Below, in pieces: positions 39,038 to 44,694 of a DNA stretch of 64,000 nucleotides. Source of the DNA: an uncultured Nitrospiraceae bacterium (GTDB lineage: Bacteria > Nitrospirota > Thermodesulfovibrionia > Thermodesulfovibrionales > Dissulfurispiraceae); the NCBI GenBank assembly GCA_963727805.1, contig CAVSHF010000003.1:608001-672000 (forward strand), in the 5' to 3' direction. How positions within the stretch are numbered: position 1 is the first letter of the stretch; each line of letters starts with the position of its first letter. The notes beneath the pieces were generated by a model. That model had not been told where the DNA came from. It saw only the letters and a program-made list of their open reading frames with translations, and searched no databases. The translations under genes were made by a program, and so were the position numbers.

Positions 39038-39296
39038 ATAATATGTTTGTCATAATGTTTAGAGATGGGTTCGATGAACCATCATTGGTCGGCAGTTCGA
39101 TATCATTCCTGTTTCCCATGCTCAACCTGCAACTGGAATTCATCATAACATTATTAATTTATCATAACATTATTGTAGAACTGAACTAGGGTAGTTATAT
39201 CCTACCCCTCCGATATTATATTTATTCATATTATAGATCTGTTGAAATCATAAATAAAGAAGAAAATGATGAATATTTGGATATTCCGGGCAGGTT

Positions 39297-41424
39297 TCCG
39301 GGTAGGAGCAGCGATTGCTCGCCACTCCCCCCACAGACCCGGACGAGCCCGATTAAGGCATCCGGTTCGTCAGTAACAAGAGGCATACAGCCTCTGGCTA
39401 ACTAAACGGATTCGACCCGTTTAGCGCATAACTTTGCTGACCTGCATGGTTTAGATATCATGGACTATTCGGGGCGACGGCAGTGGGAACAGCCGCTCCA
39501 GCTTTGGGAATTCATCCTCCCAATTCATCGATCCCTTATTGCTGCGACGACTCAACCAGTAGTGCCACGCCTTCCGTACATGCCTGTAGACAAGCAGCAA
39601 CTTACGGTAATTGCCTCTGATGCCGTAATATTGGTAGTGACCTTTTAACTTAAGGGTTAGAACACGACATTGTTCCTTAAGCGGCTCATGTCGGTGTTCC
39701 CGACACCACTCCCAAGCGCGCTTCATGGCCCGGCGCAGCCTTTTCTTGGCTGTTTGCCGCTTTACTATCCAGTACCCCCGCCGCGTCTTCGCCCAGTAGT
39801 GCGTAAAACCCAAAAAGTCAATGCTCCCATTTTCCTCAGGGTCGCTCTTGCCTTTTGGCCTTCCGAACCTAACCAGCTTCGTCTTTGTCGGGTGTATCGT
39901 TAGCCCGTACTGTTGGAGTCTCTCAGTCAGAACGGGCAATATCCATTGTGCATCAGATTCGTGTTCGCATCCGATTAGAAAGTCATCGGCAAAACGAATC
40001 AGAAAGCTCTGTCCCTTAATGCTGGGCTTCACTTCCTTGACATACCACTCATCCAGCACATGGTGTAGGAATATATTGGCCAGAATCGGCGATATGACTC
40101 CGCCCTGCGGCGTGCCCTTCTCTGGGTATGTCAGAGTTTCCCCTTCTATTACCCCGGCATTCAGCCATTTGCCGATTAGCCGTATTATTCCTCCATCGTT
40201 GACCCTTTGCCTGATTATTTCCAACAGCCTGCCGTGATCGATATTATCGAAATAGCCTTTGACATCCGCATCCACTATCCAGCCGATGTTCCCTTTCACG
40301 CATTTCTGTTGAAGCTCGCTTAACGCCTGATGCTGGCTATGGCCGCGTCTGAAGCCGTGAGAGAAGGCGAAAAAGTCGCTCTCATACACTGCCTCAAGGA
40401 GCATCGCTACCGCACGTTGAACTACTTTGTCTTCAAACGTCGGAAGTCCTAACGGCCTTTCCCCTCCGTCATCCTTAGGTATCCACACCCGGTTTACAGG
40501 CGGAGCATGATACCGTCCTCCCTTGAGTCGTGTGTGCAGCTCCCGTAGATTTTCTTCGAGGTTTGATGCGTATTCTTCTGCTGTGACCCGGTCTATACCG
40601 GGCGCAGCGTCTTTTCGGGTCAGCCTGTAGGCTTCCCGCAAGAATTCCACATCTACGTGGTGCGCCAGCGTAGTGAACACCATCTCCGGATACCGGATGG
40701 CCTGCGCTGCAATCCACCGAAGTTTCGTTGATACGGTTTGTGAGTTCGAAGCCTCTCCCATATTTCCTCTCGGTGAAACGTTATACCCGGCCTCGCCTTC
40801 CCTTCAGTGGGTCCCTTGGTCCTCGGTTCCCCACCTTCCCGGCCCGCTGGGGCCTTCGGTACTATGCTCGGCTAAGACTGCCTCATGTCCATCCCTAGTC
40901 TCTTCGTTTGTCACTCGATTCCCGGTACCACGTTTGCTCTCTGTCTTCGTTCGTCGATGTGCGAGAGCCCTCACCGACGCCTGGGGCTTTTGTTCTTCCG
41001 GTCGCCCTCTTCCCTTCCGGTTCTCAACGTGGAGACATGCGGCCCTCCCAAGTTCCCGATCTATCCCTTTGAATGTATGCCCTGCTCTCAGACCCCGGTG
41101 GTGTTCTGATGCTCGCCATTGCGCATTCAGAACTGCTGTCTTCCAGTTGTCCGAGACTGTCGACTTTCCCTCCAATGCCCTGAAGGTTATCTTACTGACC
41201 ACAATGTCAACGATTTCGGGGCTCACTAACACGGCCTACATTCTCGCTACACCCAGCTCCGCACCTCCCCTCGCGAGGACGCACGCGGGTTCGCTTCCGA
41301 CCTGTTGGCTAAGCTTTGGCCGGATGGGACTTGAGGTTTTCCGCCTCTCACCCATTGGATAGCAACAGCAAATTTCATCTCCTTTTCGCGAGATTCCCGA
41401 TGCCTCGGATTTACCTTGGCGCGA
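39297..41424 (-). mobile_element. Group II intron (RT-encoding, no endonuclease domain; class E/F-like)
   Basis: Starts TCGCGCCAAGG and ends CCTACCCGGA; domain V GAACCGGATGCCTTAATCGGGCTCGTCCGGGTC (about 39336-39368); EBS1 CGGACA (41148-41153) pairs with 5' exon TGTCCG. Confidence 0.92.
39451..40761 (-). CDS. ltrA: Group II intron reverse transcriptase/maturase
   Basis: APGID, RPLGLPT..DKVVQ, GTPQGGVISP, RFADDF, DFLGF, domain X (GHYQYYG); no HNH. Confidence 0.96.
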   Translation of the reverse strand: MGEASNSQTVSTKLRWIAAQAIRYPEMVFTTLAHHVDVEFLREAYRLTRKDAAPGIDRVTAEEYASNLEENLRELHTRLKGGRYHAPPVNRVWIPKDDGGERPLGLPTFEDKVVQRAVAMLLEAVYESDFFAFSHGFRRGHSQHQALSELQQKCVKGNIGWIVDADVKGYFDNIDHGRLLEIIRQRVNDGGIIRLIGKWLNAGVIEGETLTYPEKGTPQGGVISPILANIFLHHVLDEWYVKEVKPSIKGQSFLIRFADDFLIGCEHESDAQWILPVLTERLQQYGLTIHPTKTKLVRFGRPKGKSDPEENGSIDFLGFTHYWAKTRRGYWIVKRQTAKKRLRRAMKRAWEWCREHRHEPLKEQCRVLTLKLKGHYQYYGIRGNYRKLLLVYRHVRKAWHYWLSRRSNKGSMNWEDEFPKLERLFPLPSPRIVHDI

Positions 41425-41498
41425 CGGACACCTATTACGATCTACTTCGGACACTATTCCAATTTAGTTCGGACAGCAATTCAAAATAGTTCGGATAG
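41425..41498. repeat. Left-end repeat array of the IS21-like element
   Basis: TTCGG cores at 41446, 41468 and 41490, plus the intron-split first copy. Confidence 0.85.
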
Positions 41499-41683
41499 AT
41501 CATCAGAGCCGTGGTTCCAAAAAGTTCAGTATCAACTTCTTCCTGAATTCTGCAGCTATTTAATGATCTGATAACTGTTTCTTTTATTTCGTACCGCGCA
41601 AAATTGAGAGGACTCTATCGGCGAGAAGTGCTCCATCTTCCAAACTAAGCAAAAAAACATTATTCCGAACACTGAAGCTTAAC

Positions 41684-41712
41684 TTGCATAAGGAAATAGT
41701 ATTTGTTACTAT
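41684..41712 (+). promoter_or_regulatory. Candidate sigma70 promoter for the cargo lipoprotein
   Basis: TTGCAT-N17-TACTAT. Confidence 0.5.
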
Positions 41713-41768
41713 TCAGTTCAACAACAGCTTAAATTGCGTCCAACTAATTTATAACGAAGGATAAAAGA

Positions 41769-42311
41769 ATGAAATTGTTTGCGAAAACCACGAGTATTTT
41801 ATTTCTAATATTATTCGCAGTATTTTCATGGGGCTGTGCTCATGTTGTTGAACCTCATGGACCTTGTGAAATCGGGACTGGCATACGGCCCCTTCAGACG
41901 GGGTATTCGGTCCAGCTTATTAATAATCAGCCCGATACAACACGCGTGTCATTTGCGAGTGCCGGTATACATACATATTTGGCGAATTATAATGAGTGGA
42001 CTCAATACTACATCGATCAACTATCCAATGAACTCACAAAGCGCAATGTCGTGGTATCTAATAAAAGTCCGAACGCTATAAGGATCACTTTGAGTCAGTT
42101 TTTAATGGCGAGATGGACGGGAAGAGGCACTATGACTATTAAATTGGAGACTGCTGACGGTAGGTGGTTTAAAGTTTATGAGGAATCTGAGACATCGGCG
42201 TGGGTCATAGAAACCGCATTTAACGGCGACGTGTGCCATTCAATAGAAATGATATCGAATGATCCAGAGGTGCTTGAAAAGATGCATGAGAGTGCGGCGG
42301 AGAAGAAATAA
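41769..42311 (+). CDS. Hypothetical lipoprotein (element cargo)
   Basis: Signal peptide ending SWGC; 180 aa. Confidence 0.75.
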   Translation: MKLFAKTTSILFLILFAVFSWGCAHVVEPHGPCEIGTGIRPLQTGYSVQLINNQPDTTRVSFASAGIHTYLANYNEWTQYYIDQLSNELTKRNVVVSNKSPNAIRITLSQFLMARWTGRGTMTIKLETADGRWFKVYEESETSAWVIETAFNGDVCHSIEMISNDPEVLEKMHESAAEKK

Positions 42312-42611
42312 CTCACTATCTGCGTATCATCTCTACATCTCCGGATTTACTAAATTACCGTCCGGTACAGGCGATAAGTGCGATACGCCGAGGTCTCGAA
42401 GTTCTGCTTAAATCTCGGTTAATTGGTGGGGATAAGAGGTATGAGTCCTTCCTGAAATCCCTGCTTATCAACATATTGGGCAAAGTGCAAATTATTATCG
42501 CAAATCAACTGCGTGGCTATTCCACGCAGAAATAAGGCAACCCGATGAGATTAGGCAAGTATGAAGTCTAACCCTCATCGATGACGCGCTGTAGAATTAT
42601 CCCTTGATAGT

Positions 42612-43148
42612 TTATTTCAGTGTCTTTAGCCTCTCTATATTCTGTCTAATAGCTTTTGCATTAGGCACATTCGGATTAAGGAGGAGCACCTTTTCAAACT
42701 CGCTCACTGCAGTCTTATAATCTTTCTTATCTTCTGAGAGGACAACCCCCATATTCATATGAGCATATAAGTGGTTTGGATTTATGGTTAGGGCTTTTTT
42801 GTATTCCTTGATGGCGAGATCTGGGTTCCCAGAATTTTTAAAGCATGTGCCCATATCCACACGAACATCCACGTTATTCGGATCAAGTTCAAGAGCCTTT
42901 TCGTAAGCACCTACCGCCTCGTTGAATCTTGCCGAGTCCATCATCATGTCTCCAAGCTGTATCAAAGCATTCAAATTCTTCGGGTCTTTAGCGAGCACAT
43001 CTCTAAGGAGTTTTTCTTGTTCTAATGTCTTGCTAGTCAGAGAGCTACTCGGACTACCTGGTTGCGGTTGCTGAGGTTTTGCTTCTTCCTTCTGTTTGCA
43101 TGCGAAAACCACAAAAAACAATAATAAAATAACCAGTATCCTTTTCAT
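42612..43148 (-). CDS. TPR-repeat lipoprotein (element cargo)
   Basis: Lipobox VFAC; TPR repeats (YEKALELDP, YKKALTINP); GAGG RBS. Confidence 0.9.
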   Translation of the reverse strand: MKRILVILLLFFVVFACKQKEEAKPQQPQPGSPSSSLTSKTLEQEKLLRDVLAKDPKNLNALIQLGDMMMDSARFNEAVGAYEKALELDPNNVDVRVDMGTCFKNSGNPDLAIKEYKKALTINPNHLYAHMNMGVVLSEDKKDYKTAVSEFEKVLLLNPNVPNAKAIRQNIERLKTLK

Positions 43149-43323
43149 CTCATCACCTCTAAATAATTTGTAGTATTATAACAGGATATTGTTCGTCATT
43201 TATGTTCTATCAATTGGACTTAAGTCAGCGCTATTCGGATGTGTCTCCAATTAAGAAAAGGGAATATGCACGATGAGTTCTTCCTATAATCTTCGCTCTT
43301 GCAATACATTGGAGCACGTTTGT

Positions 43324-43552
43324 TAGATAATCATATAGAGGGGACCTCCCCGAGCATATCGGTTAGCGGTATGCTTGAGGTAAGAGAAACAATCTTAACC
43401 TTAAGGAGGTGCTGTATGAGACTGTACACAGGTTTTGATCTTCATTCAAACAATTCATATGTGGGGATCATCGATGAGGATGGGCGAAGGCTATGGAAGA
43501 AGAAACTCCGGAACGATCCTAGTCTGATTTTAGAGACGCTCAGACCGGTGTA
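43324..43552 (+). pseudogene. Truncated IS110-family element: 5' non-coding end plus about 45 codons of the DEDD recombinase
   Basis: AAGGAGG RBS then ATG at 43416, MRLYTGFDLHSNNSYVGIIDEDGRRLWKKKLRNDP; upstream TAGATAATCATATAG resembles ends of this IS110 group. Confidence 0.78.
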
Positions 43553-43620
43553 CTTGAGATCAGAAAGGTCGTATTTTTTGGGGCATAATGTCATCGCTAT
43601 GTTAAATCATCCCGTCTGGC

Positions 43621-43713
43621 GTCCGAACTAACTTGGAATAGGTGCCCGAACTGTATTGGAATGTGTATCCGAACTAAATCGGAACGGCTCTCCGAACCTG
43701 CCCGGAATTCCCA
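43621..43713. repeat. Right-end repeat array of the IS21-like element
   Basis: CCGAAC at 43623, 43646, 43669 and 43692 (exact 23-bp period), each followed by GGAA. Confidence 0.9.
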
Positions 43714-43931
43714 ATATTCTAGCCTGTTCACAAAGGTGTTGATTTTTGATGTTCAAAAGACTTATATCCCTTATCAATAAATTGGTAGGGGATTTTTAGA
43801 CAGGTCGGCCTGCCGCGATGGGCCGAGATAATTATACAGTAAGCCCGATTAACTCTACCAGCGACTCCAAATAAGAAAATGTGGTATACTGAAATACATA
43901 GTATTGCTCTGTATTGCAAAAGGAGGTATTC

Positions 43932-44360
43932 ATGAAAAGCCATCAGAAAAGCTGGCGTATTAAAGACCCTATCATCAAGGGGATGGACATTGTACGCAAA
44001 ACCGACCAACCGGAAAACGCGCTTGCTAATGAGCTGCTTGACGAGGCCCTAAGGATGCGAATGCACCTTGGAATAGTCTTCGCCGAAGGGGTCACAGGAA
44101 GACGCGCTCGGATTGCGGGCACCGGAATAGAAGTATGGGAAGTTGTTGATGAGTATAAGGAAGCTGAGTGTGAGGAGGATTTGAAAGAGGCGTTTCCGCA
44201 TTTGACGGACAGGCAGCTCATTGCGGTCTACAAATATTACCGTGCATACCCTGAAGAGATTGACGAGTTGATAAAAATCAACGAGAATATCACTGCCGAA
44301 TCCGTCGCCGGGCTTTTTGCTTTTCGGAAGGAAGGACTTGGGGATGTTTCTGATCGATGA
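43932..44360 (+). CDS. DUF433-domain antitoxin (VapB45-like)
   Basis: ARIAGTGIEVWEV, LT..QL....YYRAYPEEID; AGGAGG RBS. Confidence 0.85.
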   Translation: MKSHQKSWRIKDPIIKGMDIVRKTDQPENALANELLDEALRMRMHLGIVFAEGVTGRRARIAGTGIEVWEVVDEYKEAECEEDLKEAFPHLTDRQLIAVYKYYRAYPEEIDELIKINENITAESVAGLFAFRKEGLGDVSDR

Positions 44361-44694
44361 GAACCTAAATGTGGGGATAGCCGAAGTCCTTAAGTCGAAT
44401 GGTATCGATGCAATTCATGTAAACACGCTAGGGCTGGCCGGTGCGTCAGATAGAGAAGTTCTCGATGAAGCCGCCCAGCAAAAGCGATGCGTTGTGACCC
44501 GCAACAGGAATGACTTCCTTGAGCTAACTAAACGTTTCTTCGGCGAGGGGCGTCCTCACCATGGTGTGCTTCTAGTCCCCAAGTCATACCGCCTCAAGGA
44601 TTATGCCAGAATAGCCCACGCCATCGCATGGATGGTCCACAATAACCCTCATGCCTTCCAGCAGTACGCCTTTCTGTTTCTGCCTCCACAGTAA
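44344..44694 (+). CDS. DUF5615 PIN-like toxin (VapC45-like)
   Basis: FLIDENL, GASDREVL, VVTRNRNDF, HHGVLL; overlaps the antitoxin. Confidence 0.85.
   Translation: MFLIDENLNVGIAEVLKSNGIDAIHVNTLGLAGASDREVLDEAAQQKRCVVTRNRNDFLELTKRFFGEGRPHHGVLLVPKSYRLKDYARIAHAIAWMVHNNPHAFQQYAFLFLPPQ

Follow-up and report, generated by a model that had tools for sequence, protein, structure and literature searches.

A transposase-less cassette with IS21-type ends, interrupted by a group II intron, in an uncultured Nitrospiraceae bacterium

Introduction

How does a segment of DNA that is framed by transposon ends and a target duplication, and that encodes no transposase, come to occupy its site? The question is raised by a locus in an uncultured Nitrospiraceae bacterium (GenBank assembly GCA_963727805.1, contig CAVSHF010000003.1, positions 608,001 to 672,000; this 64,000-nucleotide stretch, in which all unprefixed positions are given, is the window). 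The initial annotation, made from the letters alone, proposed a non-autonomous IS21-like cargo element that moved as one unit. Mobile insertion cassettes (MICs) are described as passenger genes enclosed by inverted ends and a target duplication, lacking a transposase and moved in trans; MIC231 of Bacillus cereus and the mic elements with qnrD or qnrS2 are examples (PMC3913671, PMC3129680). The element analyzed here has the same structure, with inverted ends, a target duplication, passenger genes and no transposase.

Results

The element is delimited by the following features.

39273..39277, + strand: target duplication, left copy (ATATT)
39278..39296, + strand: left end, outer 19 bp; type A terminus with TG start and the first part of repeat 1
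41425..41545, + strand: left end, inner part; repeats 2-4, preceded by the remainder of repeat 1 and followed by conserved subterminal sequence closing with CTTCCTG
43547..43713, - strand: right end, type B, comprising four 23-bp repeats and ~70 bp of conserved subterminal sequence
43714..43718, + strand: target duplication, right copy (ATATT)

The left terminus is TGG at 39278 and the right terminus CCA at 43711-43713; TGG is invariant among 32 aligned ends, which were themselves collected with a TGG pattern. With the intron left out, the two ends are identical at 21 of the 23 outermost bases, the value given in the initial annotation, and at 31 of the outermost 40. The four direct repeats of 22-23 bp claimed for each end are likewise present, with cores at 43623, 43646, 43669 and 43692 on the right (period 23) and, on the left, one core split by the intron followed by cores at 41446, 41468 and 41490 (periods 23, 22 and 22). 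ATATT flanks both sides, as had been noted. The 2,308 bp originally assigned to the interior is the length of the whole element minus its intron; the interior measures ~2.0 kb (41546-43546). Since contigs from two public sequencing runs reach from the flank across the terminus into the intron (X1, 39242-41044; X2, 39227-39679; X1 is possibly the source sample), an assembly artefact can be discounted for the left junction, and X1 contigs part from the element exactly at 43713. The right end is 93% identical over 168 bp to the end at C3:890102. Conservation falls sharply at the inner boundary of each end module, but decayed common sequence often runs on beyond them, and we claim no site-specific recombination site there.

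The IS21-like character of the ends was confirmed by comparison with a genuine istA-istB element. An intact IS21 of 2,645 bp is present in three copies in a genome of the same family (element L211 of G089), with IstA (NF033546) and IstB (NF038214) above cut-off; its left end matches the ends described here at 28 of 35 bases without gaps (z = 12.8 against shuffles), and its copies produce duplications of 5, 6 and 7 bp. A second IS21 end (L259 of G214) has the core CGGACAC, the same as in the element's ends. Both belong to the TG-N3-ATTCC subgroup (reference IS5376), for which TG...CA termini, several direct repeats, asymmetric ends and 5-7-bp duplications are described (PMC10122671); the present element shares these features and has homologous ends. 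Its repeat core is TTCGGACA, whereas the intact IS21 elements that we saw have CCGGCCAC, GCGAACA or CGCGACCA.

Unlike an intact IS21, the element contains no istA or istB, and here open reading frames and a domain search bore out the first reading. Neither IstA nor IstB was detected within the first 3 kb of any of 59 family ends with at least 500 bp of interior (0/59), a count that overstates their absence, because even the G089 IS21 falls below the 22-bit cut used (20.6 bits) and multi-copy IS elements tend to be places where assemblies break. Hidden Markov models of IstA N-termini and IstB C-termini, run over 89 ends, found no istA or istB remnant inside them except in true IS21. Because both genes are missing from the element and from the 59 ends, we regard it as a derivative of IS21 and not as an IS21.

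The autonomous partner envisaged at the outset was not found, in that no IS21 with these exact repeats was seen among the IS21 loci read in the genome and its relatives. Searches of the genome with NF033546 and PF01695 recovered no istAB element with the TTCGGACA core; they did recover three intact IS21 families with different repeat cores, two of which (IS21a and IS21b) have ends that align weakly to those of the element (z 1.3-3.8), while the third is unlike it. No element with this core was found with NF033546 in 10 relatives that carry the ends (upstream ends of 31 loci read), nor with the G089 IstA, which matched in 24 of 317 genomes of the order (30 loci read). In G090 an IS21 located 4 kb inward of an end was considered as a partner and rejected, as it has its own, different ends. 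Scans of viral sequences gave one match to the end pattern, which looks like chance, and no relatives of IstA, and a blastn search of plasmids with the right end gave no match. In vitro, IstA is described as requiring two complete repeats per end (PMC10122671). We infer that the element was mobilised in trans by IstAB.

Sibling elements with other cargo were found, target duplications included. The genome contains 14 ends of the same family. Of 9 inward-facing end pairs in the genome, its relatives and metagenomes, 7 are bordered by 5-7-bp duplications, three of them perfect and four with one mismatch; the count omits L130, a palindromic assembly artefact, and three pairs in which one terminus is eroded or lost (L128, L334 and C3:2327165-2335896). 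Such duplications occur at 2.8% of random flank pairs (P = 4e-10), and when the present element is excluded the figure is 6 of 8 (P = 1e-8). A perfect duplication of 5-7 bp arises by chance in 0.3% of 4,830 random flank pairs. The enclosed cargoes are unrelated and range from 1.9 to 42 kb, comprising toxin-antitoxin genes, an AdoMet decarboxylase, a PEP-CTERM protein, fur with a peroxidase, an RHS protein and a 42-kb signalling cluster. Because the ends are homologous to those of IS21, duplications surround unrelated cargo at 7 of 9 pairs and none of 59 ends carries istA or istB, the element is a member of a family of IS21-derived MICs with varied cargo. This family differs from MIC231, whose ends are those of IS231 (IS4 family), in having IS21-type ends with several repeats and lengths of 1.9 to 42 kb; no cognate autonomous partner was found for it.

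The interior of the present element holds two cargo genes and a truncated insertion sequence.

41769..42311, + strand: cargo 1, 180 aa, a predicted lipoprotein outside known families (no Pfam match; lipobox read by eye)
42612..43148, - strand: cargo 2, 178-aa TPR protein with predicted lipobox, from a domain search
43324..43550, + strand: IS110 stub, truncated after 44 codons at the start of the right-end module

The TPR lipoprotein and the IS110 stub were both recovered as first described. For cargo 1 the candidate promoter is unsupported: promoter-like sites in 41400-43750 number 5, against 5.3 +/- 2.2 in shuffled sequences, and none lies upstream of 41769. A protein search with cargo 1 returned only itself, and Atlas placed it in clusters of hypothetical proteins at 0.97; homologues of 58% and 45% identity occur in 2 of 67 genomes of the family, within radical-SAM operons and with no ends. 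Cargo 2 has no other close copy in the genome, and the homologues in relatives are 52-63% identical and in other contexts. Homologues of the cargo genes in the relatives lie apart from each other and have no such ends around them. Beside mutS, the relatives checked lack a 68-kb stretch that includes the element. Relatives yielded no empty site, the flanking DNA beyond mutS being unconserved across 67 genomes of the family, and contigs of four runs contain no joint across the element, so that the duplications at 7 of 9 pairs are indirect evidence of movement as a unit; these runs are of low depth, so that uncovered stretches carry no information, and a weak joint in one of them (X3, 41544-43679, with 22 letters on one side) was excluded from use.

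The state of the interior bears on whether the cassette moved as now built. An IS21, or a larger IS21-ended transposon, might have inserted with its own istAB and lost it by later deletion, never moving in trans in its present form. The IS110 stub is 98.7% identical to an intact copy (C5:57004) and is cut at the edge of the right module, so the interior was rearranged recently; two metagenome loci (L114 and L149) share one insertion site and differ inside; and no second copy of the cassette was seen at any other site. However, no end retains a remnant of istA or istB, a 97%-identical cargo gene follows related ends at two distinct flanks (L121/L138/L046 and L156), and perfect duplications border small transposase-less siblings. 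We consider this history unlikely.

The left end is interrupted by an intron.

39297..41424, - strand: group II intron, 2,128 bp, after base 19 of the left end
39451..40761, - strand: reverse transcriptase/maturase of the intron, 436 aa, with an open frame (PF00078, E = 4e-40; TIGR04416 over cut-off)
41148..41153, - strand: predicted EBS1 loop (CGGACA), from alignment to Rfam RF02005

Its assignment to group II is based on the RT/maturase open reading frame, the domain I-IV model, domain V-VI hairpins and EBS1-IBS1 pairing. Canonical group II introns start with GUGYG and end with AY. The present intron departs from this consensus with a UCGCG start and a GA end; these unusual termini (UCGCG...GGA) are common to a homologue in G010, and the start is also found in one in G004. 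No endonuclease domain was matched in the RT/maturase. The predicted EBS1 has the sequence of the end-repeat core, CGGACA, and is complementary to the final six bases of the exon; covariation with the target is seen in the homologue from G010 and, in part only, in that from G004. In the genome the intron occurs three times (0 and 3 differences), each time interrupting the terminal repeat of an end of this family at the same base, and no unoccupied site matching TG[TG]CCGAACCTG is present. As judged from sequence, the near-identity of the copies implies recent homing. An intron in the terminal repeat likely blocks transposition and would immobilise the present copy. This probable immobilisation was overlooked in the first reading, as was the fact that the class already has a name, mobile insertion cassette.

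The intron also admits an origin of the left end by recombination between two identical introns, which would have joined an outer 19 bp of type B to an inner part of type A; ATATT would then flank the unit by chance, and the unit would never have transposed. Of the outer 19 bp, 18 agree with the intron-bearing type B end at C3:2327165, and the intron copies there and in the present element are identical. The first spacer, 5 bases long in 27 of 29 AT-type (type A) ends, has 6 in the left end, as in the right end, a length rare among type A ends (2/29). Bases 4-5 of the left end are nonetheless type A, neither of the other intron copies is the reciprocal product (each has type B sequence on both sides), the preference of the intron for CAGGTT explains the look of an invaded A end, and a perfect duplication is seldom found at random pairs, as given above. 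Such a chimera is improbable.

Discussion

Overall, the evidence indicates that the locus is, with good probability, a transposase-less cassette with IS21-type ends that was inserted as a unit by IstA and IstB acting in trans and is now likely immobilised by its intron. An IS21 of the TG-N3-ATTCC-terminus subgroup would have lost istAB and retained two end modules of ~140 and ~170 bp. The IstA of a sister IS21 would bind the repeats and IstB supply the target, the staggered cut leaving duplications of 5-7 bp. Later insertions and deletions may have reshaped the interior, with the recent IS110 cut at the edge of the right module, and an intron that pairs with the repeat core through its EBS1 would have homed into repeat 1, so that 2.1 kb now separates the terminal 19 bp from the remaining repeats.

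Tn7-like ends begin with TGT, and their duplications are fixed at 5 bp. An assignment of the ends to a Tn7/Tn5053-like or Mu-like system, served by a tnsABC-tniQ-like operon elsewhere in the genome, is largely refuted and very improbable: TG...CA termini, internal repeats and a 5-bp duplication occur there too, and C5:895-898 kb carries a Mu-transposase-C-domain gene together with one for TniB, but the end profile scores at most 6.6 bits throughout C5:875-910 kb, the operon at C5:893-898 kb is not bounded by such ends, the duplications range from 5 to 7 bp, as with the IS21 copies here, and direct end homology indicates IS21.

Published examples exist both of MICs and of introns within IS inverted repeats, and neither class of element is new. 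RmInt2 of Sinorhizobium meliloti is described as an endonuclease-less group II intron with every copy in the inverted repeats of ISRm17 (PMC4615759), and the present intron resembles it in lacking an endonuclease and in having all copies inside IS-type ends. It differs in belonging to another lineage (Rfam D1D4-6), in its non-canonical termini and in its target, which is the repeated, predicted binding-site core of a non-autonomous IS21 family, with several sites per end.

A wider picture is tentative: an orphan family of IS21-type ends with no autonomous parent may persist across the Thermodesulfovibrionales, cross-mobilised by non-cognate IstA and carrying 2-42 kb of accessory DNA, and may be parasitised by an intron whose EBS1 has been retargeted to the transposase-binding core, which stacks into successive repeats and switches cassettes off.

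Annotation pipelines overlook such cassettes, and the end profile from the present analysis finds them directly. The system allows one to test how far IstA cross-recognition of sister ends reaches and how large a cargo IS21 machinery can move, and the intron appears to illustrate clearly how one mobile element can read the protein-binding repeat of another. In a little-studied group of wetland relatives of sulfate reducers, signalling clusters and RHS loci as well as stress genes and toxin-antitoxin pairs are enclosed by this single end family, which therefore may explain part of the accessory genome of these bacteria.

Ends, target duplication and interior of the element

The transposase-less cassette in the window, hereafter the element, comprises the following features:

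39278 (TGG) to 43713 (CCA): the element
39297 to 41424, minus strand: group II intron, with a reverse transcriptase and a match to Rfam RF02005
ATATT, on both sides of the element: target duplication

The initial annotation had proposed a non-autonomous, IS21-ended element, and its description of the boundaries holds: once the intron is removed the two ends are identical at 21/23 bases, each end carries four repeats with a period of 22-23, and the flanking ATATT is present. Its figure of 2,308 bp for the interior is that of the whole intron-less element, and the candidate promoter placed there is unsupported. The interior carries an ORF of 180 aa that belongs to no known family, together with a TPR protein and the stub of an IS110. 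At 39137-39174, about 100 bp to the left of the element, 19 bp are duplicated in tandem (95% identity); the 75 bp directly after the target duplication (43719-43793) have 76-80% matches at C3:2256096, C5:1069040 and C5:1227814 in the source genome and are possibly a small repeat.

Homologues of the two cargo genes in relatives are located apart and without ends, so the interior genes were not seen in the same context lacking the ends, the arrangement that the initial annotation had named as contrary to its proposal. An empty site, which it had suggested looking for in related genomes, was found neither in relatives nor in four public sequencing runs, and no contig of these runs has a joint spanning the element; the contigs confirm the left junction, and other right-type ends diverge at 43713. 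The RNase R gene follows shortly after mutS in G003 and G006 and lies 68 kb away in the source genome, while G002, G005 and G007 have an unmapped ORF of its size after mutS. This spacing indicates that the element sits in a variable stretch absent from those relatives. Within the ~68-kb stretch (window 37830 to C3:714310, mutS to the RNase R gene; absent there in G003 and G006), a DUF433 gene and a DUF5615 gene form a pair at 43914-44694, and a PrsT/PEP-CTERM cluster is also present.

A family of ends with unrelated cargo

The source genome holds 14 copies of the family ends, two being the element's own. Type A ends (the element's left) have a mostly 5-base first spacer and conservation running inward to CTTCCTG; type B ends (its right) have a 6-base first spacer and conservation running inward to about AAGTACAC. 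Among records in the named genome collection that match the ends, 11 of 13 are titled Nitrospiraceae, Dissulfurispiraceae or Nitrospirota; the other two are without a terminus and resemble chance. The two-repeat pattern occurs in 9/317 genomes of the order (reversed control, 0), and the terminal pattern in 2/401 genomes of the phylum and in 71 metagenome stretches (46 judged real by eye). An end profile (at least 22 bits) gave 70 distinct end-like sites, at least two of them probably chance. Type B ends at C4:103263 in the source genome and G003:C2:1065593 (L097, L292) have outer flanks that resemble each other across the two species, suggesting a single, old insertion common to both.

Nine inward-facing end pairs with both termini readable were counted, four further pairs being excluded (one artefact, three with a terminus lost). 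A 5-7-bp duplication is present in seven: it is perfect at the element (5/5), L139 (2,984 bp; 6/6) and L157 (1,879 bp; 6/6), and has one mismatch at L120 (2,005 bp), in G160 (4,382 bp) and G006 (6,034 bp), and at C3:847622-890102 of the source genome (42.5 kb). The remaining two, L332 and C3:703644 with 814497, have none. This level was reached by 2.8% of 4,830 random flank pairs (P = 4e-10; P = 1e-8 without the element). The cargo is unrelated case by case, and the sibling elements with other cargo sought by the initial annotation are thus found, duplications included. These comparisons suggest that the family ends move cargo.

The 42.5-kb sibling (5/6 duplication) is rich in two-component signalling genes, with pairs of an IS91 transposase and an integrase just inside both ends. 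L332 (G160:C1:317487-320442) has two inward type A ends; between them lie a reverse transcriptase gene that is no longer intact and a BrnT gene.

Neither IstA nor IstB was found in the first 3 kb inside the ends at any of the 59 sites having at least 500 bp of interior; that the element inserted carrying its own istAB, lost afterwards, seems unlikely.

Relation to IS21

An intact IS21 (istA and istB; 2,645 bp) is present in a genome of the same family, G089, in three copies with duplications of 5, 6 and 7 bp. Its left end matches the element's left end without the intron at 28/35 bases (z = 12.8); set against the element's right end, the same IS21 end matches at 23/35 (z = 8.3). A CGGACAC core is common to the family ends and an IS21 end in G214; on this homology, the family ends derive from that IS21 subgroup. 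A chimeric origin of the left end appears quite improbable. IS21 families are present in the source genome as well, with 9 istA copies scoring above the cut-off; their ends share the layout but have other cores and align weakly with the family ends (z 1.3-3.8). The IstA of one of them, IS21b, is 62% identical to that of G089. An IS with homologous ends, as foreseen by the initial annotation, exists in G089, but the cognate enzyme was not found. A Tn7-like operon at C5:893698-898425 (ORFs of 215, 685, 301 and 426 aa; Mu-transposase C domain and TniB matches; AT-rich repeats upstream) has none of the family ends, and their belonging to a Tn7-like system is barely credible. We consider it probable that the element is an IS21-derived cassette which would have been moved by a transposase acting in trans, its interior then remodelled after insertion and its left end finally jammed by the intron.

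The intron in the left end

Intron borders were set by two other genomic copies and by homologues, the one in G010 fixing both ends and the one in G004 the 5' end. All three genomic copies (0 and 3 differences) are inserted after base 19 of a family end, and their near-identity implies that the intron is mobile. The predicted EBS1 loop, CGGACA, is complementary to the six bases that end the exon and has the sequence of the repeat core; in the G010 homologue the loop has changed in step with its target, and in the G004 one the two match only partially. At the element's right end the EBS1-pairing bases differ and no intron is inserted. No unoccupied copy of the 12-base site TG[TG]CCGAACCTG exists in the source genome (0.9 expected by chance), whereas the 9-base version has 22 free matches, 8 within family ends, which argues that bases beyond EBS1 matter.

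Group II introns have the consensus termini GUGYG and AY; this intron starts with UCGCG and ends with GGA, the start being shared with the homologues in G010 and G004 and the end with the G010 one, and its domain V bulge is UC versus AC in the G010 homologue. Two runs (X3, X8), one of peat DNA and the other of wetland RNA, each have a contig joining 41430 to 39294. It links the 5' end of the intron through a single 23-base repeat to an intron 3' end, which fits either a pair of introns occupying consecutive repeats or a circular form. A type B end at C3:2329312 stops at the second repeat, the same repeat as in this joint.

According to PMC10122671, integration by the IS5376 IstA requires two complete repeats; by analogy, the splitting of repeat 1 by the intron likely disables the left end. 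Class E/F introns depend on EBS1, as described in PMC3753933.

Place among known elements

Mobile insertion cassettes are defined in PMC3913671 and PMC3129680, and transporter IS and MITEs are treated in PMC9330008. An intron inside IS ends has precedent: PMC4615759 places RmInt2 in the inverted repeats of ISRm17. The literature covered, partly accessible and with subscription journals mostly outside its scope, held no report of IS21-ended mobile insertion cassettes in Nitrospirota or of an intron in IS21 ends. The observation is well supported as real, and the cassettes as a new family within a known class.
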